Assembly: GCA_963704655.1 (NCBI GenBank)
Contig: OY969927.1
Coordinates: 465,192 to 497,191 of the forward strand
Origin: an uncultured Candidatus Babeliaceae bacterium
GTDB lineage: Bacteria; Babelota; Babeliae; Babelales; Babelaceae
Direction of reading: 5' to 3'
Length of the DNA stretch: 32,000 bases
This document shows, piece by piece, positions 1,655-31,681 of this stretch. The notes beneath the pieces were generated by a model, which saw only the letters and a program-made list of their open reading frames with translations, ran no database searches and was not told the DNA's origin. How positions within the stretch are numbered: the stretch's first letter is position 1; the number at the start of each line of letters is the position of its first letter. Position numbers and translations under genes: made by a program.

Positions 1655-1673
1655 TTTTAACCCCTTTTTTTAA

Positions 1674-1823
1674 CCGCTTAATACTTCGACTAGCTCAGTA
1701 TGAGCGGTTTTTTTGTGATTTTTACGTCCAAGTCGCTCATCCTGATACTTCGACTACCTCAGTACCAGGGGCCCGCCTGCCCGCCGAAGCTTTACGCGAA
1801 GGCTGGGTCGAAGGGTTGGCGAC
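1674..1823. repeat. ORF-less cluster of GC-rich palindromic repeat modules, same family as the GIY-YIG element arms
   Basis: Contains ccgcttaatacttcgactagctcagtatgagcgg. Also contains gtcgctcatcctgatacttcgactacctcagtaccaggggcccgcctgcccgccg...gtcgaagggttggcgac. It shares catcctgatacttcgac and cagtaccaggggcc.gcccgccg with the arms at 17148-17393 and 23474-23640. Confidence 0.7.
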
Positions 1824-1973
1824 TATCTAAGATCTTTGTTTTAAATGTAAAAACTATTCTACTTACACCTTAATATAGTAATACTAATTAACTCAATACT
1901 CTGCCGAAATTGACAATTTGCCATTATTGCCTATAATTAAAGATAACTTAACGTTCGTAAATCTGGAAAATAT

Positions 1974-3895: not shown

Positions 3896-3955
3896 CCCGC
3901 CCCTTTTGTTACATTCTTCTTCGCCACAGGCTCGAAGAATATTCAGGGTGCACGG
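3896..3955 (+). repeat. solo hairpin repeat unit, same type as the units flanking the GIY-YIG gene at 9389-9709
   Basis: cccgccccttttgttacattc-[ttcttcg ccacaggct cgaagaa]-tattcagggtgcacgg. The flanks match CATTC...YTCAGGRTGCACGG of units 9294-9340, 9361-9420 and 9731-9781, but the 7-bp stem sequence is different. Confidence 0.6.
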
Positions 3956-5587: not shown

Positions 5588-7426
5588 ATGGACCTAAAAA
5601 AAATTAATCTTAAAGATTTTACACCCGATAGAATTAGAAACTTTTCTGTAATCGCACATATCGATCATGGCAAATCAACGCTGTGTGACAGGCTTCTAGA
5701 AATTACCGGCACCCTTTCAACCCGTAACAAGAATGAACAGTTTCTTGATAAACTGCAAGTTGAAAAAGAGCGCGGGATTACCGTTAAAGCACAATCTGCT
5801 TCAATGTTTTATGAGTATAAGGGCCAAACTTACCTTTTAAACTTAATCGATACCCCCGGCCACGTTGATTTCAACTACGAAGTTTCTCGTTCATTATACG
5901 CCTGCCAAGGGGCATTATTGCTCGTCGATGCTAGCCAAGGCGTGCAAGCACAAACTATGGCAAACTTTTATTTAGCCTTTGACCAAGATTTAACGATTAT
6001 CCCGGTTATTAATAAAATCGATATGGCCCACGCCGAACCAGAACGCGTAGAAGAAGAGCTTAAAACGCTTTTTGATTTTGATAAATCACAAGTATTACGC
6101 GCATCAGCTAAAGCCGGTATTGGGGTTCATGAAATCTTAGCCGCTATTATTGAGCGCATCCCCGCACCCGTAAGCAAGACAGAAGAGCCCCTTAAAGCGC
6201 TTCTTTTTGATTCATGGTATGACGAATACAAAGGGGTAATCTGTTTAATAGCTGTTAAAAATGGCGCCATTAAAAAAGGCGACCAAATTACTCTTGCTTC
6301 TACTGATAAACAATACGAAGTTTTAGAAATCGGGCTCATGTACCCGGACCAAATGCCCACTGATGCATTATATGCAGGGCAAGTTGGTTATGTTATTACG
6401 GGCATGAAGACCGTACGTGAAGCGCGCGTTGGTGATACGATATTTAACGCCCGACTACAAAAGCAACTACACCAAATGCCCGAACCTGGCTTTAAGCCGT
6501 CAAAACCGATGGTTTTTGCAGGTATTTACCCTGTTGAAGCATCAGATTTTGAATTATTACAAGATGCGATAGAAAAATTAACGCTTAACGACGCCAGTGT
6601 TAAAGTTGAAAAGAAAAGTTCGATTGCATTGGGCCTTGGTTTTCGGTGTGGATTTTTAGGATTGTTGCATATGGATGTCTTTAAGCAGCGTCTTGAGCAA
6701 GAATATAATATGAACGTTATTGCAACGGCACCAAGCGTACTTTTCAAAATTGTTATGAAGTACACCAATGAAACGGTTACCATTGAAAGCCCTTCAGATT
6801 TTCCTGATGTTCAACAAATTGATCATGTATTAGAACCGATTATCGATGCAACTATTTTAGTACCCAAAGAATATCTTGGCGCTATTTTAGCCTTGTGTGA
6901 AGAAAAACGCGGCATTCAAAAAGAACTTTCTTACTTAAATGAACAGCGTATTATTTTACGGTACCGGTTACCACTTAATGAAGTTGCCACTGATTTTTAT
7001 GATCAATTAAAATCACTCAGCTCCGGTTATGCAAGTTTAGATTATGAAGAAGCTGGCTATCAACCGGCAGATTTAGTTAAAATGGATATCTTGCTTAATG
7101 GAAAAGCGGTTGACGCCCTTTCAAGCATTGTTCATGAAGAAAGTGCTCAACGTGTTGGGCGTGAAATTGCAGAACAATTACGAAAAGCGATCCCGCGCCA
7201 GATGTATGAGGTTGCTATTCAGGCTGCTATTGGTGCAAAAGTTATTGCACGTGAATCGATTTCTGCATTACGCAAAAACGTTATAGCAAAGTGTTACGGT
7301 GGTGATATAACCCGAAAACGTAAACTGTTAGAAAAACAAAAAGAAGGTAAGAAAAAAATGAAGCAAGTGGGCAACGTAGAAGTTCCACAAGAAGCTTTCT
7401 TATCGATATTAAAAAAAGAGAGTTAA
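5588..7426 (+). CDS. lepA: translation elongation factor 4 (LepA)
   Basis: 612 aa with G-domain motifs AHIDHGKST, DTPGH and NKID. The LepA-specific C-terminus is present (YGGDITRKRKLLEKQKEGKKKMK). Confidence 0.95.
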   Translation: MDLKKINLKDFTPDRIRNFSVIAHIDHGKSTLCDRLLEITGTLSTRNKNEQFLDKLQVEKERGITVKAQSASMFYEYKGQTYLLNLIDTPGHVDFNYEVSRSLYACQGALLLVDASQGVQAQTMANFYLAFDQDLTIIPVINKIDMAHAEPERVEEELKTLFDFDKSQVLRASAKAGIGVHEILAAIIERIPAPVSKTEEPLKALLFDSWYDEYKGVICLIAVKNGAIKKGDQITLASTDKQYEVLEIGLMYPDQMPTDALYAGQVGYVITGMKTVREARVGDTIFNARLQKQLHQMPEPGFKPSKPMVFAGIYPVEASDFELLQDAIEKLTLNDASVKVEKKSSIALGLGFRCGFLGLLHMDVFKQRLEQEYNMNVIATAPSVLFKIVMKYTNETVTIESPSDFPDVQQIDHVLEPIIDATILVPKEYLGAILALCEEKRGIQKELSYLNEQRIILRYRLPLNEVATDFYDQLKSLSSGYASLDYEEAGYQPADLVKMDILLNGKAVDALSSIVHEESAQRVGREIAEQLRKAIPRQMYEVAIQAAIGAKVIARESISALRKNVIAKCYGGDITRKRKLLEKQKEGKKKMKQVGNVEVPQEAFLSILKKES

Positions 7427-7431
7427 TAGTT

Positions 7432-8487
7432 ATGGTCAACGAACAATTCAATGGTAATATCGTTATCTTTCAGGCATTTGATGTGGGTGACGATATCAAC
7501 TTCTCAAAAGTTCTTAATGAAAAAATGCTCCCGGTTTTACCGTCCCAGTATTCAAAATACTTTAAGAACTATCATATCCCGTTAACGGTGGCGCCTTCGT
7601 TACTTGACCCAAAAATTACCTGCAATAACGCCAAGTTGCATAATTTTGGTGTTATTACGCTCAGATATCAGATCCCTTTTAGTTCGACCTTTGAAGATTT
7701 AAAATCAGAAATTACTGCTATCGATACGCGTTATGAAACACAAAGTTTAAATGACGCGTTCTTTATTTTTAATAAAATTAAGGGCGCCGTTAAACAATCA
7801 AACTTTTTCCACTTACGTAAGTCGTATACGGTAATCCAAGTTAACCCACAACAAAAATATGATGTGGTAAATTTTAAAGATACGTTTGGCAGTATTATCG
7901 CCTCAACACTGCGCTTTGAAACAGAGACACTGTCTGAATACCAAAAAAATGAGATCTTAGCATCTGCTTTTGGCTATTACCGTGGTGATCTTATTATTGT
8001 CGATACAGAAGCGGCATGCGTATATGACGACGAATATGAAGACATTTTGGAGCTCTTTGAGTTTGCCAATATGCAGCAGCTTGAATTACAGTATTTTGAC
8101 CGCGTATTGGATAAACAGCTCAATACCGTGTATGAACGTCAAGTTAAAGCCCCGCCATTTCGGTCATATCTGCCCTTTATCTCTGCTACAGAAGGCGACC
8201 CAATTGGCGACCTTGAAAAACTTAAAGTAGATATTTCAGTTATTACTGAAAGGCTTGAAAACAGTATCAAAGTTGCCGGCGAAGCTTATTATTCTGAACT
8301 GTACCAGCTTTTAACTGAAAAGCTTGATCTGCAAAATTGGAAAGAGTCTATTAACCGCAAGCTGTATATTATTCAGGATATTGCTACGGTGTACCAAAAC
8401 AAAATTGACGCCGTGCGTGGTGATATTTTATCAGTTGCGATTATTATCTTAATCGCCCTTGAACTGGTTATTTTGATTATTAAGTAA
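7432..8487 (+). CDS. hypothetical C-terminally membrane-anchored protein (possibly RMD1/DUF155-like)
   Basis: 351-aa ORF starting 5 nt after the lepA stop. It has a single C-terminal TM segment (ILSVAIIILIALELVILII). The family assignment comes from memory of architecture only. Confidence 0.55.
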   Translation: MVNEQFNGNIVIFQAFDVGDDINFSKVLNEKMLPVLPSQYSKYFKNYHIPLTVAPSLLDPKITCNNAKLHNFGVITLRYQIPFSSTFEDLKSEITAIDTRYETQSLNDAFFIFNKIKGAVKQSNFFHLRKSYTVIQVNPQQKYDVVNFKDTFGSIIASTLRFETETLSEYQKNEILASAFGYYRGDLIIVDTEAACVYDDEYEDILELFEFANMQQLELQYFDRVLDKQLNTVYERQVKAPPFRSYLPFISATEGDPIGDLEKLKVDISVITERLENSIKVAGEAYYSELYQLLTEKLDLQNWKESINRKLYIIQDIATVYQNKIDAVRGDILSVAIIILIALELVILIIK

Positions 8488-8509
8488 ATAATGCGCTTTG
8501 GCGCACCAC

Positions 8510-8545
8510 AAAAAAAGGGCCCTGAAGTTTCAGGGCCCCTTTTAT
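8510..8545. terminator. bidirectional intrinsic terminator between convergent genes
   Basis: aaaaaaa-gggccctgaa-gt-ttcagggccc-ctttta. This is a 9-10 bp GC-rich stem flanked by an A-run and a T-run. Confidence 0.7.
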
Positions 8546-8566
8546 CAATATCTATCTTCTTTACTA

Positions 8567-9106
8567 TTACTTCTTCTCGCACGTAAAAACTAAATGTCCC
8601 GGATAACCGCCTGAAAAGAATGGTTTAATTTTCTCATCGGTATAAAGTTTTGCATTCAGTGTCCCGCAAGCTTGACTTGCTAAAATATTAATCAAGCCTT
8701 CATTTTTTTTATCTATACCAGGCTTTAAAGGTTCTTGTGTAATAGCATAGAATTTATCAGCCACAGGCTGTATTACCCAGTTTATAGTTGAATCATTCGG
8801 ATTGCTTGTCCAACGCGCAACTTTTAATTTTTGAAGCGGCTTTGCGGTAACCTTATTAGCAGAATCAATGCTTACCAATCCAGCACCAAATTGCGCACAG
8901 AGTGCACGCGCATCAGCTTCGGCCATATTTGGCTCCACCACATCAGACTTACTAAGCATCTTTACATGTGTATGATCGACTGTGATAGTAAACTGATCTC
9001 CTAACTGGGGCTGGAAATAATAATCTGCATTGTATACATCAGGCATACCACCAGCCTGCAAACCTACAGCTGCAAACGAACAGAGTAATAAAAATAACTT
9101 TTTCAC
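8567..9106 (-). CDS. hypothetical secreted protein (GTG start)
   Basis: 179-aa ORF with signal MKKLFLLLCSFAAVGLQA. AGGAGA lies 5 nt upstream of the GTG at 9106. Confidence 0.6.
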   Translation of the reverse strand: MKKLFLLLCSFAAVGLQAGGMPDVYNADYYFQPQLGDQFTITVDHTHVKMLSKSDVVEPNMAEADARALCAQFGAGLVSIDSANKVTAKPLQKLKVARWTSNPNDSTINWVIQPVADKFYAITQEPLKPGIDKKNEGLINILASQACGTLNAKLYTDEKIKPFFSGGYPGHLVFTCEKK

Positions 9107-9242
9107 AACATTCTCCTGAATTTATAAAATTAACACTATATATCTATAAATTCAGGTTAACAAAGAATATCGATAAAAATCAAGAGTTTTAATATAAGAG
9201 ATAATTGATTTTATATTAAAAACTTAAACAAAATTATTATAT

Positions 9243-9287
9243 TTACTCATAAACAGCGACTTTTGCCGGGCGGAGGATCACTGTCCC
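9243..9287 (-). pseudogene. orphan duplicate of the last 14 codons plus stop of grpE
   Basis: The minus strand reads GGG ACA GTG ATC CTC CGC CCG GCA AAA GTC GCT GTT TAT GAG TAA, which is GTVILRPAKVAVYE*. This is identical in protein to the real grpE end at 9794-9838. The two differ at 5 nt, all synonymous third positions. Confidence 0.8.
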
Positions 9288-9293
9288 CTCAAT

Positions 9294-9340
9294 CCGTGCA
9301 CCCTGAGTGTTCACCGCAGGTGAATGTATCGAAGGGTCGG
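9294..9340 (-). repeat. hairpin repeat unit U1 (inverted orientation)
   Basis: Its reverse complement is ccgacccttcgatacattc-acc tgc ggt-gaacactcagggtgcacgg. Confidence 0.75.
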
Positions 9341-9360
9341 CATTTAATTTTATATGACTT

Positions 9361-9420
9361 CCGCTATCCTTCGATACATTCTACTTCGCTAAAGCTTCGT
9401 AGAACACTCAGGATGCACGG
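9361..9420 (+). repeat. hairpin repeat unit U2
   Basis: ccgctatccttcgatacattc-tac ttcgctaaagcttc gta-gaacactcaggatgcacgg. It overlaps the last ~11 codons of the GIY-YIG ORF. Confidence 0.75.
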
Positions 9421-9709
9421 GATCACAGAATTTCTTTTTGGCGTACTCCGTAAGCAACTTAAAATCCCCTGTAATAAGTGCTTCTTTTTTCTTTCGGGTC
9501 CACCCTTTTAATTTTTGCTCAAGCTTAAAAGCTTCAGTGCGCTCTTCTAACGCTGCATGAAAAACTAATGTAACAGGCAATCTTGTTGAGGTATATCCGC
9601 AAATCATCTTATTTTGATGGTCTATAACACGCTTTTCAAGATCATCAGTTTGTCCAACATAATAAGAATCATCACTGCACTTTAAAATATAAACATAAAA
9701 ATATTTCAT
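9389..9709 (-). CDS. small GIY-YIG nuclease family protein (COG2827/UPF0213 type)
   Basis: MKYFYVYILKCSDDSYYVGQTDDLEKRVIDHQN...EQKLKGWTRKKKEAL carries the GIY/YIG motifs, the conserved R/H and the Glu. It is a paralog of 17468-17764 and 23175-23480. Confidence 0.85.
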   Translation of the reverse strand: MKYFYVYILKCSDDSYYVGQTDDLEKRVIDHQNKMICGYTSTRLPVTLVFHAALEERTEAFKLEQKLKGWTRKKKEALITGDFKLLTEYAKKKFCDPVHPECSTKL

Positions 9710-9730
9710 ATAACTTGTTAGACATTAATA

Positions 9731-9781
9731 ATCGCTATCCTTCGATACATTCCCCCGCTGGGGGAACACTCAGGATGCACG
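9731..9781 (+). repeat. hairpin repeat unit U3
   Basis: tcgctatccttcgatacattc-cccc gct gggg-gaacactcaggatgcacgg. Confidence 0.75.
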
Positions 9782-9793
9782 GGGATGGGGAAT

Positions 9794-10243
9794 TTATTCA
9801 TAAACAGCGACTTTAGCAGGGCGCAGGATAACTGTCCCCATGCGATAGCCTTTTTGCAATACCTGTGCAATAGCGCCAGAAACAGCCCCTTCAACTAACG
9901 GCGTTTGCATAATCGCTTCATGTAAATTTGGGTCAAACTGGGTATTTTCGGTAATTTCAGTAACATTAAAGCGACTAAGTACCTTTTTAAATGCTTTATA
10001 GATAAGCTCAAATGCCGGGTTTGATATATCATGCTGTGCACGGTCAAAATCATCAACAATGTCGATCAATTGCGTCAAAACATCTGCTTGTGCAGCCTGT
10101 GACCACTGGCCACGTTGAGCTTCCATGCGCTTTCTATAGTTATCAAAATCAGCCTGCAAATAGGCATATTGTTGCCTACAGCGCACTAATTCGTCGTTAT
10201 CGCGCACAACTGTTTCTTGGTTAAGATTATTATTTTCTTCCAT
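9794..10243 (-). CDS. grpE: nucleotide exchange factor GrpE (short form)
   Basis: 149 aa with LQADFDNYRKRMEAQ and a C-terminal GYRMGTVILRPAKVAVYE, both typical of GrpE. Confidence 0.9.
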   Translation of the reverse strand: MEENNNLNQETVVRDNDELVRCRQQYAYLQADFDNYRKRMEAQRGQWSQAAQADVLTQLIDIVDDFDRAQHDISNPAFELIYKAFKKVLSRFNVTEITENTQFDPNLHEAIMQTPLVEGAVSGAIAQVLQKGYRMGTVILRPAKVAVYE

Positions 10244-11796: not shown

Positions 11797-11826
11797 AACC
11801 CTTCGACTACGCTCAGGGCGAGCGGT
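11797..11826 (+). repeat. solo repeat module (CCCTTCGAC-TACG-CTCAGGGCGAGCGG)
   Basis: aacccttcgactacgctcagggcgagcgg closely matches cgctaacccttcgacaagctcaggatgagcg of the GIY-YIG element arms. Confidence 0.55.
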
Positions 11827-11864
11827 ACTAGGAGGTCGTGAGTTATCAACAAGAAATTATGTAA

Positions 11865-17094: not shown

Positions 17095-17147
17095 TCAAGA
17101 GCAAAATAATATTAACGAAATATAACTAAGCTTTCATCCTCAAAAGT

Positions 17148-17393
17148 GTGTCACCCTGATACTTCGACTGGTGTGTAAACGCACTATTTTTGCTTAGTAC
17201 TAAAGACCAGTTGAACTTGCCTGCCTGCCGCCGTTTCATTCTTATGCTTCGACTTGCCTTTAGTATTGAGCTTGTCGAAATATCAGCACGTGGGTTTACT
17301 CCTGAGCCTGACGAAGGGCTCGCTCATCCTGATACTTCGACTAACGCTCAGCAGTAAAGGCTCGCTCATCCTGAGCTTGTCGAAGGGTTAGCG
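17148..17393. repeat. left arm, a mosaic of GC-rich palindromic modules
   Basis: 17236-17332 matches 22984-23080 with 2 mismatches in 97 nt. The outer part is homologous to the reverse complement of 23560-23640. Confidence 0.75.
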
Positions 17394-17424
17394 CGAATAT
17401 TTAAATTATATTTAATAATAAAAA

Positions 17425-17433
17425 TGTTATAAT
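17425..17433 (+). promoter_or_regulatory. extended -10 promoter element (TGtTATAAT) for the GIY-YIG ORF
   Basis: tgttataat lies 35 nt upstream of the ATG. The same element sits at the same offset in the paralogous element (23125-23133). Confidence 0.4.
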
Positions 17434-17467
17434 TAATCTAAGTTTAAATTTTATAAAGTGTAAGAAA

Positions 17468-17764
17468 ATGTCGGATCAAGTTTTTTATTTATATATCCTA
17501 CAATGTAACGACCAATCATATTATGTTGGCCATACTGATGATATCGAAAAGCGTATTGCTGATCATGCTGCCGGTCTGTGTGGTTATACTTCAAAAAGAT
17601 TACCTGTAAAATTAATTCATATTGATCAATTTCAAGCGCGGGACGAAGCATTTATTGCTGAACATAAAATAAAAGGCTGGACTAGAAAGAAGAAAGAGGC
17701 TTTTATGCAAAAAAAATTTGATGAATTAATTAGGTTATCTAATTTTAAAAAAGAAATTATTTAA
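17468..17764 (+). CDS. small GIY-YIG nuclease family protein (COG2827/UPF0213 type)
   Basis: FYLYILQCNDQSYYVGHTDDIEKRIADHAAG...EHKIKGWTRKKKEAF. About three quarters of residues are identical to 23175-23480. Confidence 0.9.
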   Translation: MSDQVFYLYILQCNDQSYYVGHTDDIEKRIADHAAGLCGYTSKRLPVKLIHIDQFQARDEAFIAEHKIKGWTRKKKEAFMQKKFDELIRLSNFKKEII

Positions 17765-17785
17765 ACTATATACTTTACGCTAATT

Positions 17786-17857
17786 CGCTAACCCTTCGAC
17801 AAGCTCAGGATGAGCGAGCCTTTAGTACTGAGTTTATCGAAGTATCAGGGTGACACC
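17786..17857. repeat. right arm of the element
   Basis: cgctaacccttcgacaagctcaggatgagcgagcc...tcgaagtatcagggtgacac is the reverse complement of left-arm modules. Confidence 0.75.
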
Positions 17858-17924
17858 TTTAGCGCCACAAGAGCTTAGTACTCCCTACATAAACAAATGG
17901 GGTTCTATAATACTTTTTTATTAA

Positions 17925-22896: not shown

Positions 22897-22980
22897 TACG
22901 TTAATTTAATTACAACGTATGCTATCATTCTTGCGACAGCCTCGCACGTCTGAAAATAAAAAAAAGTTGATCTTGTCGCC

Positions 22981-23101
22981 GTGTCATCCTTATGCTTCGA
23001 CTTGCCTTTAGTATTGAGCTTGTCGAAATATCAGCACGTGGGTTTACTCCTGAGCCTGACGAATGGCTCGCTCATCCTGAGCCTGTCGAAGGGTTAGCGA
23101 G
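22981..23101. repeat. left arm of the element
   Basis: Near-identical to 17236-17332. It also contains the inner IR module. Confidence 0.75.
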
Positions 23102-23124
23102 CGCTATTAAATTTATTACTAAAA

Positions 23125-23133
23125 TGATATAAT
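23125..23133 (+). promoter_or_regulatory. extended -10 promoter element (TGaTATAAT)
   Basis: tgatataat lies within the AT-rich core, upstream of the GIY-YIG ATG. Confidence 0.4.
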
Positions 23134-23174
23134 ATGTTGATATGTTTAATTTTAAATTTTAATTTTTATCTCGA

Positions 23175-23480
23175 ATGTTAAACCAGAATTTTTTTGTTTA
23201 TATACTTGAATGCAAAGATAAATCCTATTATGTTGGACATACTGATAATATTGAAAAACGTATTGCAGAACACGCTGAGGGTATGTGCGGATACACATTA
23301 AAGCAGCTACCGGTAAAATTAATTTATATTGAGCAATTTCAAACTCGAGATGAAGCATTTATTGCTGAACATAAAATAAAAGGCTGGACTAGAAAGAAGA
23401 AAGAAGCGTTAATGCAGAAGAGATTTGATGAGTTAATTATATTATCAAATTTCAAAAAAAAATTTCCTGAAACTCGCTAA
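23175..23480 (+). CDS. small GIY-YIG nuclease family protein (COG2827/UPF0213 type)
   Basis: FFVYILECKDKSYYVGHTDNIEKRIAEHAEG...EHKIKGWTRKKKEAL. The stop codon lies inside the right-arm IR. Confidence 0.9.
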   Translation: MLNQNFFVYILECKDKSYYVGHTDNIEKRIAEHAEGMCGYTLKQLPVKLIYIEQFQTRDEAFIAEHKIKGWTRKKKEALMQKRFDELIILSNFKKKFPETR

Positions 23481-23640
23481 CCCTTCGACAAGCTCAGGAT
23501 GAGCGAGCATTTAGTGCTGATATTTCGACAAGCTCAATACTAAAGGCAAATCGAAGCATCAGGATGAGCGGCGGCGGGCAGGCCCCTGGTACTGAGCAAA
23601 ATAGTGCGTTTACGCACCAGTCGAAGTATCAGGATGACAC
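23474..23640. repeat. right arm of the element
   Basis: Its modules mirror the left arm. An additional outer part is homologous to 17148-17235 and 1732-1790 (cagtaccaggggcctgcccgccg; gtgcgtttacgcac hairpin). Confidence 0.75.
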
Positions 23641-23691
23641 CCTTTGCAGAAAAGTTTTTTTCTTAAATATATTTCATCGAACTTATGTTAC

Positions 23692-30785: not shown

Positions 30786-30813
30786 AAAAGGGCCCGGATT
30801 TCGGGCCCCTTTT
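30786..30813. terminator. bidirectional intrinsic terminator between convergent genes
   Basis: aaaa-gggcccg-gattt-cgggccc-ctttt. Confidence 0.7.
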
Positions 30814-31165
30814 AATTAGAATCTTGATTTTTTTTCAACCCAGCTTCTCTCTTTTTCTTTTCTAAATTTCTTTGAAATATAAGAAGTGCACTATTTAAAT
30901 TAAATTCATCAAATTGTTTAATGGTCATATAACCCCGTTCTCTTGGGGTATACTTTGAGGCGAAAGCATCAACAAATGCTTCTATAAGTTGATTTCCATA
31001 CGAAGGGCGTCTTCTTAAAATATAATTTATTGTTTCCGTTCTAAAAGTCGAATTATTTGCATGCGTAGATACATGAGCATTTTGAATATCAACTTGCTTA
31101 GGACAGAACAAATCTGTTGATACACATGCAGCTGTCACTAAAAAAAATAGTTTTTTGTAATTCAT
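30812..31165 (-). CDS. hypothetical small secreted protein (paralog A)
   Basis: 117 aa with signal MNYKKLFFLVTAACVSTDLFC. The 5' end and upstream region are duplicated at 31471-31558. Confidence 0.6.
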   Translation of the reverse strand: MNYKKLFFLVTAACVSTDLFCPKQVDIQNAHVSTHANNSTFRTETINYILRRRPSYGNQLIEAFVDAFASKYTPRERGYMTIKQFDEFNLNSALLIFQRNLEKKKREAGLKKNQDSN

Positions 31166-31207
31166 ACAATACCTTTTACCGTAATAGTTAAAATTTTTGA
31201 ATCATAT
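31121..31207. repeat. ~87-bp duplicated block (5' coding end plus upstream region), copy 1
   Basis: Near-identical to 31471-31558 (gcagctg.cac.aaaaaaaatagttttttgtaattcatacaata.ccttttaccgtaatagttaaaa..tttgaatcata). Confidence 0.8.
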
Positions 31208-31227
31208 TATAAAGGGCTCGGAATTAT

Positions 31228-31515
31228 TTAAAGATTATCAATTATAGAGGATCCAAGACAATTCCGACATTCACCCATTAAATCGGCCTTTTGCATTTTA
31301 CAAAAACTAACATATCTTTCTTTTTGCCCGCGTGCAAAGCTATCAACCACAATAGCAGCCTGATCAATATTAAGAGGTATATTTCTTGCCAACCATCTAA
31401 TAGCTTTAGCTCTATTAACACTATCAACTGTAGGTGCAGCCGTATCTTCGACGCACAACACATGGGTTGTTATACACGCAGCTGCCACCAAAAAAAATAG
31501 TTTTTTGTAATTCAT
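31228..31515 (-). CDS. hypothetical small secreted protein (paralog B)
   Basis: 95 aa with signal MNYKKLFFLVAAACITTHVLC. Confidence 0.6.
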   Translation of the reverse strand: MNYKKLFFLVAAACITTHVLCVEDTAAPTVDSVNRAKAIRWLARNIPLNIDQAAIVVDSFARGQKERYVSFCKMQKADLMGECRNCLGSSIIDNL

Positions 31516-31558
31516 ACAATAACCTTTTACCGTAATAGTTAAAAAATTTGAATCATAG
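31471..31558. repeat. ~87-bp duplicated block, copy 2
   Basis: See 31121-31207. Confidence 0.8.
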
Positions 31559-31681
31559 TATTAATAAAATTAAGTATACATAACGCAATAAAATAGTACA
31601 TTTAAAGCTCCTATTGCTCTTATGCAATTTTACTACTATAGTAAAATTTACAGAAAATAGTATGTAAAAAAAAGGGCTACG

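Follow-up and report, generated by a model that had tools for sequence, protein, structure and literature searches.

A duplicated grpE 3' end beside a small GIY-YIG element in a Candidatus Babeliaceae chromosome, a possible scar of recombination between diverged alleles

Introduction

Mobile open reading frames (mORFs) have given rise to gene hybrids in atp6 of Allomyces macrogynus, in atp6, atp9, cox2 and nad3 of Glomus sp., in atp9 of Rhizopus and in cox2 of Mortierella; in these hybrids an endonuclease open reading frame (ORF) of the LAGLIDADG or GIY-YIG type carries a foreign in-frame C-terminus that displaces the native one, and they have been read as endonuclease-driven transfer between related genomes (PMC3630166). 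Here we analyze a stretch of 32,000 nucleotides (the window; contig OY969927.1 of assembly GCA_963704655.1, positions 465,192 to 497,191) from an uncultured Candidatus Babeliaceae bacterium, in which a small element with a GIY-YIG nuclease gene lies between the chaperone gene grpE and a second, orphan copy of the 3' end of that gene. Judged by analogy of layout, the mitochondrial mORF hybrid is the closest precedent. Both arrangements comprise a gene core, an in-frame C-terminus with its stop codon, a free-standing endonuclease ORF (of the GIY-YIG type in Glomus atp9) and an orphan C-terminus; in both, the copies differ mainly at synonymous positions, and the gene is uninterrupted in relatives (here at the loci that we number L006, L026, L028, L007/L027, L031, L042 and L044). 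The present case differs in that it lies in a bacterial chromosome (Dependentiae) rather than an organelle, and in that the nuclease is a ~100-aa domain of the Slx1/UPF0213 type without a DNA-binding domain, not an enzyme of the I-TevI or LAGLIDADG type. In addition, its ORF is bounded by structured inverted arms, and the same hotspot also has tail duplications around cargo that is not a nuclease.

Homology-facilitated illegitimate recombination in naturally transformable bacteria combines a homologous anchor on one side with a microhomology join on the other, and places foreign DNA beside a conserved gene. One-sided homology, the microhomology join and integration next to a conserved gene are all features of the event proposed for the grpE locus, but this process usually deletes recipient sequence instead of duplicating it and involves no nuclease element; to our knowledge, repeated events of this kind at a single gene end are not on record. 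Gene 3' ends are also occupied by integrative elements and prophages that supply a replacement end, for example by phage 21 and e14 at icd, and by integrative and conjugative elements at tRNA or ribosomal-protein genes. They resemble the present locus in that the insert is flanked by a duplicated 3' gene end, with no damage to the gene and only silent differences between the copies; they are, however, kilobases long and use a tyrosine or serine integrase, whereas the insert behind grpE measures 0.5 kb and lacks a recombinase. Finally, we compared the locus with the REPtrons and REPINs formed by repetitive extragenic palindromes (REP) and REP-associated tyrosine transposases (RAYT) (PMC2817692, PMC3116915). 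One small gene between inverted structured repeats, and dispersed intergenic solo copies that often lie just past gene ends, are common to both. The gene here encodes a GIY-YIG nuclease rather than a Y1 (HUH) transposase, which leaves the element outside the REPtrons; its arms are 45-60-nt composite stem-loops, and its mobility is putative.

Results

The grpE 3' end is present twice

The window contains a complete grpE, an essential chaperone gene, the end of which recurs beyond a 506-nt segment (9288-9793) that separates the two copies.

9794..10243, minus strand: grpE, complete, 149 aa (Pfam PF01025, E = 8e-31)
9792..9839, minus strand: tail copy B, the in-frame grpE end (14 codons, TAA, AT), adjoining the left arm (F1) of the element
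9241..9288, minus strand: tail copy A, an orphan 3' end of grpE that meets the end of the element at a GGG(G) microhomology, with no grpE sequence upstream

Direct reading and a repeat finder agree on a 48-nt direct repeat (9241-9288 and 9792-9839, with starts 551 nt apart) that is identical at 43/48 positions and consists of the final 14 codons of grpE, TAA and then AT. This bears out an earlier reading of the window, made from its letters alone (the sequence-only reading), which had the grpE end recurring across a segment of ~506 bp. On the minus strand both copies run GGG ACA GTN ATC CTN CGC CCN GCN AAA GTC GCT GTT TAT GAR TAA and then AT, which encodes GTVILRPAKVAVYE followed by the stop; in grpE itself this string is preceded by ATG and has GTT, CTG, CCT, GCT and GAA at the variable codons. 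As the same reading had held, there are five differences (GTT/GTG, CTG/CTC, CCT/CCG, GCT/GCA and GAA/GAG), 5/5 of them at third positions and 5/5 synonymous, and both copies retain TAA as well as the downstream AT. They also share an identical 17-nt core, AAAGTCGCTGTTTATGA. The chance that five random substitutions are all synonymous is P = 0.001-0.002, and it rises to P = 0.016 under a fairer null in which the in-frame copy is under purifying selection and the orphan drifts; the signal for the window copies is real, yet it is based on five sites. The synonymous-only differences, together with a second tail duplication in the relative L038 described below, agree with the proposal of the sequence-only reading that the copies stem from two alleles, and they support the view that the tails behave as two functional grpE alleles, unlike a decayed target-site duplication.

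Searches of the window with grpE (tblastn and blastn) gave no trace of the gene beyond residues 136-149 at 9246-9287. A larger, ancient grpE pseudogene, which the sequence-only reading had named as a competing source of the orphan, is ruled out by this result. Assembly error was considered as well. The same sequence was found in assemblies from five samples, and one 1.3-Mb contig in the European Nucleotide Archive (ENA) spans the whole arrangement; separate short-read contigs cover it with zero mismatches from grpE to the hairpin (L002, L003) and from the hairpin via the orphan to the next gene, ORF179 (L034-L036), the break point of the short-read assemblies being the palindrome center at 9335. 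Samples that contain this species are ERZ25039454 (long reads), ERR11594402, ERR11630400, ERR11563597 and ERZ19050867; the relative L037 comes from ERZ19047767. A chimera is rejected on the grounds that the junction shares just 3-4 nt and is identical across independent assemblies, including the long contig. The junction between element and orphan falls at GGG(G), a string common to the end of the element (ATTGnGGG in L037 and L038) and to grpE (ATGGGGACA).

The reading that we favor, to which we assign a rough probability of 0.42, is that the duplication is a scar of repair or recombination between diverged grpE alleles with homology on one side only, and that it marks recurrent recombination in the last ~60 nt of grpE, next to the element.

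A minimal GIY-YIG gene lies between structured arms

The 506-nt insert consists of arm F1, the GIY-YIG gene (its only ORF), arm F2 and the inverted arm R1.

9733..9791, minus strand: arm F1, the left terminal structured repeat, composed of TCCCCATCCCCGTGCATCCTGAGTG, a stem-loop and GTATCGAAGGATAGCG; inverted repeat with 9294-9344
9389..9709, minus strand: GIY-YIG nuclease ORF, 106 aa, catalytic domain only, of the UPF0213 / prokaryotic Slx1 branch
9362..9420, minus strand: arm F2, an internal arm copy into which the final codons of the GIY-YIG ORF extend; direct repeats with 9733-9798
9289..9341, minus strand: arm R1, the terminal arm on the right, in inverse orientation to F1 and F2, plus ATTGA; forms a long palindrome with F2

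Relative to F1, R1 is a terminal inverted repeat, and it is followed by ATTG in L037 and L038 as well as in the window. Folded as DNA, 9286-9428 has an energy of -37.4 kcal/mol (z = -8.3). When arms from the window and its relatives are aligned (alignment A3, n = 11), conserved flanks CCGTGCAYCCTGAGTG and GTATCGAAGGRT enclose an inner stem in which the sequence varies and pairing is kept, with double (compensatory) changes at 7/15 pairs. No credible Rfam match was obtained for the whole window at gathering thresholds or for 9200-9860 at permissive E-values.

The 106-aa protein matches PF01541 over residues 4-75 with 54.9 bits (cutoff 22.6), and its nearest solved relatives are the UPF0213 proteins BH0048 (PDB 1zg2, E = 8e-12) and EF2693 (1ywl, E = 2.5e-10), both of which have been assigned to the Slx1 family of structure-selective nucleases (PMC1564403). 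It is a single-domain protein without an auxiliary domain, and the proteins compared have lengths of 94-106 aa. The predicted catalytic set (Y7, Y16/Y17, G19, R27, H31 and E64) is invariant among the three paralogues in the window. On these features the nuclease is classified as a member of the GIY-YIG superfamily, in its prokaryotic Slx1 / UPF0213 (COG2827) minimal-domain branch. The intron-type homing model TIGR01453 (group I intron endonuclease) scores 16 bits, far below its cutoff of 56. A classical GIY-YIG homing endonuclease of the I-TevI / Seg / Mob type fails as a description, the protein having 106 aa and no C-terminal DNA-binding region. A scan for homologues of the nuclease in viral contigs gave none. 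The best explanation of the 506-nt insert, one that we offer as tentatively as the allelic reading, may be a small selfish element in which three structured arms surround a minimal GIY-YIG gene of the Slx1/UPF0213 type.

Two other lineages carry the element behind grpE

Tracing the closest homologues of the nuclease to their contigs led to L038 (to which L039 is identical) and L037. The L038 nuclease has 82% amino acid identity to that of the window, and the order of its locus is grpE with tail 1, a spacer, ORF215, 18 nt, the orphan tail 2, 20 nt, F1, the GIY-YIG gene, F2, R1, a terminator and the MJ0711_N-like gene. Here the duplicated tails bracket ORF215, which encodes a signal-peptide protein that is unrelated to ORF179 when the two are compared; the orphan stands directly upstream of the GIY-YIG element, and nothing tail-like follows the right arm. 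This orphan is ~57 nt long (NYSMGTTILRPAKVAVYE and the stop) and differs from tail 1 by two synonymous changes and one V/I swap, both residues of which occur in functional grpE of relatives. In L037, the nuclease of which is 92% identical to the window protein, the tail is followed by a solo arm, ~40 nt, a remnant (ATGAGTAAAT), F1, the GIY-YIG gene and F2.

Directly upstream of F1, accordingly, the window has grpE in full, L038 an orphan of 57 nt and L037 a remnant of 10-11 nt. Because a grpE tail is always immediately 5' of F1, the element-linked copy is the upstream, in-frame one. The sequence-only reading had proposed the opposite, that the orphan travelled with the element, and this is contradicted by the position of the tail in 3/3 element-carrying lineages. 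Its count of G/C at 4/5 variable sites in the orphan, against 1/5 in the in-frame copy, is right; the argument drawn from the count carries no weight because CCG, GCA and GAG are ordinary allelic states in the functional tails of relatives. An extra tail or remnant is present in 3/3 lineages with the GIY-YIG gene and in 0/11 without it (Fisher p = 0.0027). Since the orphans differ in length (48, ~57 and ~10 nt), they represent three independent events, and the differing junctions (-48, ~-57 and ~-10) taken with the different bracketed DNA indicate that the duplication is not a target-site duplication of the element itself.

Paralogous elements and solo arms

Counting the copy behind grpE, three GIY-YIG elements lie within 32 kb, and arms also occur by themselves.

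17143..17863, plus strand: GIY-YIG element 2, with an ORF at 17468-17764 (98 aa) and nested inverted arms; no flank duplication
22974..23647, plus strand: GIY-YIG element 3, with an ORF at 23175-23480 (101 aa) and 54-nt inverted arms that are 96% complementary; no flank duplication
Window 1672-1850, 3900-3955 and 11798-11830, L005 3370-3430 and L041 1966-2018: arms that lack a nuclease gene, solo or in clusters

The two paralogous nucleases have 54-55% amino acid identity to that of the grpE element. Elements 2 and 3 are 80% identical in nucleotide sequence, and modules of the left end of element 2 recur, inverted, at the right end of element 3. Solo arms share the core motif CCCTTCGAC...GCTCAGG / CCTGAG...TCGAAGG and usually lie no more than ~50 nt past a stop codon (M48 peptidase and ssb; grpE in relatives). 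With three paralogous copies bearing inverted arms, solo arms in the same 32 kb and a conserved arm structure, the element looks mobile. Flank duplications were sought at elements 2 and 3 and at the solo-arm sites, and none were found. The sequence-only reading had suggested searching for other GIY-YIG elements flanked by duplicated gene ends, of which the window holds none among its two other elements, and it had taken the bracketing to be a signature of the element; that idea gives way before these unflanked elements and the tails around ORF215 in L038.

The GIY-YIG homologues of other lineages (P0130, P0166, P0178, P0215, P0223, P0225, P0238 and P0241) end in the C-terminal strings LRQAQDD, FDSAQPD/FDSAQGD, STSSGRT or LRLGSGRT. 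The arm core of elements 2 and 3, CTTCGACAAGCTCAGGATGA, translates as LRQAQDD, and the remaining strings probably derive from arm-like repeats. The association of nuclease and arms therefore seems to be widespread across lineages and to produce spurious ORF extensions.

These observations bear on an origin by a long staggered cut or by replication slippage, in which the copies would have been identical at insertion and diverged later, the in-frame copy changing only synonymously or being replaced by allelic recombination and the orphan having not yet decayed. The value of P = 0.016 for 5/5 synonymous differences under the mixed model is low but not negligible, and an 11-nt exact direct repeat (GAGTAAATATT) around the solo-arm insertion of L037 looks like a target-site duplication. 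The orphan of the window, however, has neither a non-synonymous change nor an indel and keeps its TAA in spite of ~36% third-position divergence; elements 2 and 3 lack any duplication, and the L038 tails bracket a different gene. We also know of no target-site duplications of 48-57 nt for GIY-YIG enzymes, which leave 2-nt overhangs. We regard such an origin as improbable. A transposon with target-site duplication was tried separately and fails: elements 2 and 3 lack repeats, the orphans measure 48/57/10 nt and the window differences are all synonymous.

Single-crossover (Campbell-type) or site-specific integration would make both copies hybrids of two alleles, with the crossover falling inside a ~48-nt grpE tail carried by a circular form of the element. 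Recombination at 3' gene ends is known from integrative islands and prophages, and the layout behind grpE resembles attL and attR at such sites; both copies are sharp-ended (GGGGACA ... TAAAT), and the 17-nt identical core lies inside the duplication. It is hard to reconcile this model with orphan lengths that vary between lineages (48, 57 and 10 nt), with bracketed DNA that in L038 is not the element, or with paralogous elements devoid of such repeats. Moreover, the element has no tyrosine or serine recombinase and the neighboring ORFs contain no recombinase domain. We give this mechanism little chance. The likeness to integrative islands that the sequence-only reading had seen is lost with the missing integrase. 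An integrase-mediated element with att duplication also fails as a candidate, the GIY-YIG gene being the sole ORF and no recombinase domain lying nearby.

The gap behind grpE is a hotspot for cargo

Homologues of the window grpE with 68-89% identity are found in metagenome-assembled genomes of Candidatus Babeliaceae (Dependentiae). Synteny is kept upstream of grpE in these relatives, and downstream a convergent MJ0711_N-like gene and lepA are kept. By comparison of these sequences, the gap between grpE and the MJ0711_N-like gene (window 8488-9793) is a variable cargo hotspot.

7432..8487, plus strand: MJ0711_N-like gene, convergent, the conserved far boundary of the hotspot; directly follows grpE in L006, L026, L028 and L042
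9107..9240, minus strand: AT-rich spacer (17-21% GC); contains promoter-like sites and, at the ribosome-binding site of ORF179, a perfect inverted repeat of 12 nt
8567..9106, minus strand: ORF179, a lineage-specific ORFan with a signal-peptide-like N-terminus that follows the orphan tail
L006, L026, L028 and L042: empty hotspot (terminator only, or overlapping stops)
L007/L027, L031 and L044: element absent; one grpE tail and a terminator, beyond which the sequence is non-syntenic or truncated
L008, L029 (223-aa ORF) and L032 (ankyrin genes): unrelated genes behind grpE
L005 and L041: solo arm behind grpE
L040: other hairpins behind grpE

One grpE tail and no GIY-YIG gene were found in all of the element-free lineages in this list. 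The element-free single-tail alleles that the sequence-only reading had called for are present in the first two groups of loci, so that the case of relatives with the tandem arrangement and no element-free allele is not what was found. A scan of metagenomes with the grpE alignment added two further loci, both of them empty sites. The tightest empty form is that of L042 (3476-3483), where grpE lacks the usual stop (...VAVYEYLI, then the stop codon) and runs into the region where the convergent MJ0711_N-like gene has its stop.

ORF179 has no Pfam or NCBIfam match, finds only itself among 5.8 billion proteins and is absent in all relatives examined; every contig that carries it shows the identical arrangement. 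Just upstream of its GTG start, a perfect 12-nt inverted repeat (CCTGAATTTATA / TATAAATTCAGG, window 9115-9156), which overlaps the ribosome-binding site, could act either as an operator or as a translational hairpin. Hotspot cargo (window, L005, L008, L029, L032 and L038) is lineage-specific, and several of the products are signal-peptide-like (ORF179, ORF215 and the 223-aa ORF) or ankyrin proteins, as is typical of effector-like genes in amoeba-associated bacteria.

Among the neighboring genes, lepA is one 612-aa ORF at window 5588-7426 and four fragments (109, 115, 87 and 202 aa) in the 1.3-Mb ENA contig (L001, 8820-10662), which probably reflects frameshift errors of long-read assembly and not biology. 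At the far end of the window, two adjacent minus-strand ORFs, 30812-31165 (117 aa) and 31228-31515 (95 aa), have 5' ends and upstream sequences that are 85-91% identical at a spacing of 350 nt; the repeats at 31104-31213 and 31454-31564 are a local tandem gene duplication.

The variable content of the hotspot also raises a mirror-image import, in which copy B and the element have long been resident, and copy A came in, together with the spacer and ORF179, on a fragment of another Babeliaceae genome. That genome would have had ORF179 behind grpE, and the fragment would have been broken ~48 nt before the grpE stop and taken up by homology at the MJ0711_N-like gene with an illegitimate join at the right end of the element, a form of homology-facilitated illegitimate recombination with its anchor on the opposite side. 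Vertical residence would agree with the linkage of tail, F1 and GIY-YIG gene in three lineages and with an element that has diverged to the same degree as the host genes; the ~9-fold more host-typical codons of copy B compared with copy A weakly favor the idea as well. Further support is provided by a junction exactly at the end of arm R1 and by ORF179 itself, an ORFan absent from relatives as imported cargo would be. Yet the 3' end of the MJ0711_N-like gene has no exceptional affinity to any relative in a nearest-neighbor check, a donor with grpE followed by ORF179 was not found (ORF179 matches only itself), and in L038 and L037 the element itself would have had to be imported each time. We know of no documented precedent for this orientation, and hold the import of copy A to be rather unlikely.

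Discussion

Recombination between diverged grpE alleles would begin with a break or join within the last ~60 nt of the gene. The grpE side would then recombine homologously with a diverged Babeliaceae allele, copying its tail and whatever follows, and the other side would be sealed illegitimately at a 3-4-nt microhomology (GGGG), leaving the resident tail as an orphan out of context. Because grpE is essential, only products that restore the full reading frame would persist, and the differences between copies would for that reason be inter-allelic, i.e. synonymous. In the window, copy B and the element (9289-9839) would have entered a genome that already held copy A, the spacer and ORF179, a homing-like gain in which, we infer, copy B is the imported copy. 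The single rule that new DNA is inserted between the gene core and the resident tail would cover the window, L038 and L037, the same process having perhaps taken up other cargo in the relatives (ORF215 in L038 and the solo arm in L037). As the association of duplications and element suggests, the breaks may be caused by the nuclease or by its cruciform-forming arms.

Several observations weigh against this reading. Copies A and B agree at 40/45 positions, whereas copy A agrees with the tails of ten relatives at 31-37/45 and copy B at 31-40/45; the two 45-mers are thus closer to each other than to almost any relative, the sole tie being copy B and L031 (40/45), in a comparison where even the nearest relatives reach just ~84% identity over grpE, and the tails of relatives single out neither copy as the native one. 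A sliding comparison along grpE with 12 relatives showed no co-conversion signal. The codons of copy B are ~9-fold more genome-typical than those of copy A, which weakly favors B as the resident copy. Divergence between the window and L038 is similar for the element (83.5% nucleotide identity) and for grpE (82.3%), so there is no sign of recent transfer between the two. Sequence-specific homing is doubtful for a protein without a DNA-binding domain, and the break positions (-10, -48 and -57) are close together, not identical. Finally, no empty-site allele of the same species was found among the sequences matched, and the statistics are based on five sites (plus three) and on 14 lineages, the independence of which is incomplete.

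In the literature searched, we found neither an element of this type nor bacterial chromosomes with such gene-end duplications described, which is not proof of novelty; searches on arm-derived peptide strings, on mobility of UPF0213/YhbQ/COG2827 proteins and on GIY-YIG genes with terminal inverted repeats or miniature inverted-repeat transposable elements gave nothing relevant. By analogy, the scar looks like a kind well known from fungal mitochondria for which a bacterial-chromosome case was not found described. A bolder proposal, about which we are doubtful, is that minimal Slx1/UPF0213-type GIY-YIG genes with conserved stem-loop arms (...CCTGAG-stem-TCGAAGG...) are a widespread, undescribed bacterial selfish element, a bacterial counterpart of mitochondrial mORF homing. 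Its structure-selective nuclease would act on its own cruciform arms and so turn the 3' ends of essential genes next to it into hotspots of recombination, which would lead to allele replacement, gene-end duplication and cargo capture.

A practical gain for annotation is that orphan tails of genes, and spurious ORFs extending through arms of this kind, become recognizable. The GIY-YIG gene is the only feature here that tracks with repeated, independent duplications of the 3' end of an essential gene. Proteins of the UPF0213/YhbQ type are common in bacteria, and their function is not agreed; if the link is causal, they would gain a role as the nuclease of a selfish element. In that case, the mechanism by which an endonuclease carries a replacement gene end would be extended from fungal mitochondria to bacterial chromosomes, and intracellular bacteria that share amoebae would have a route by which to swap alleles and to gain genes for secreted proteins at a fixed hotspot.

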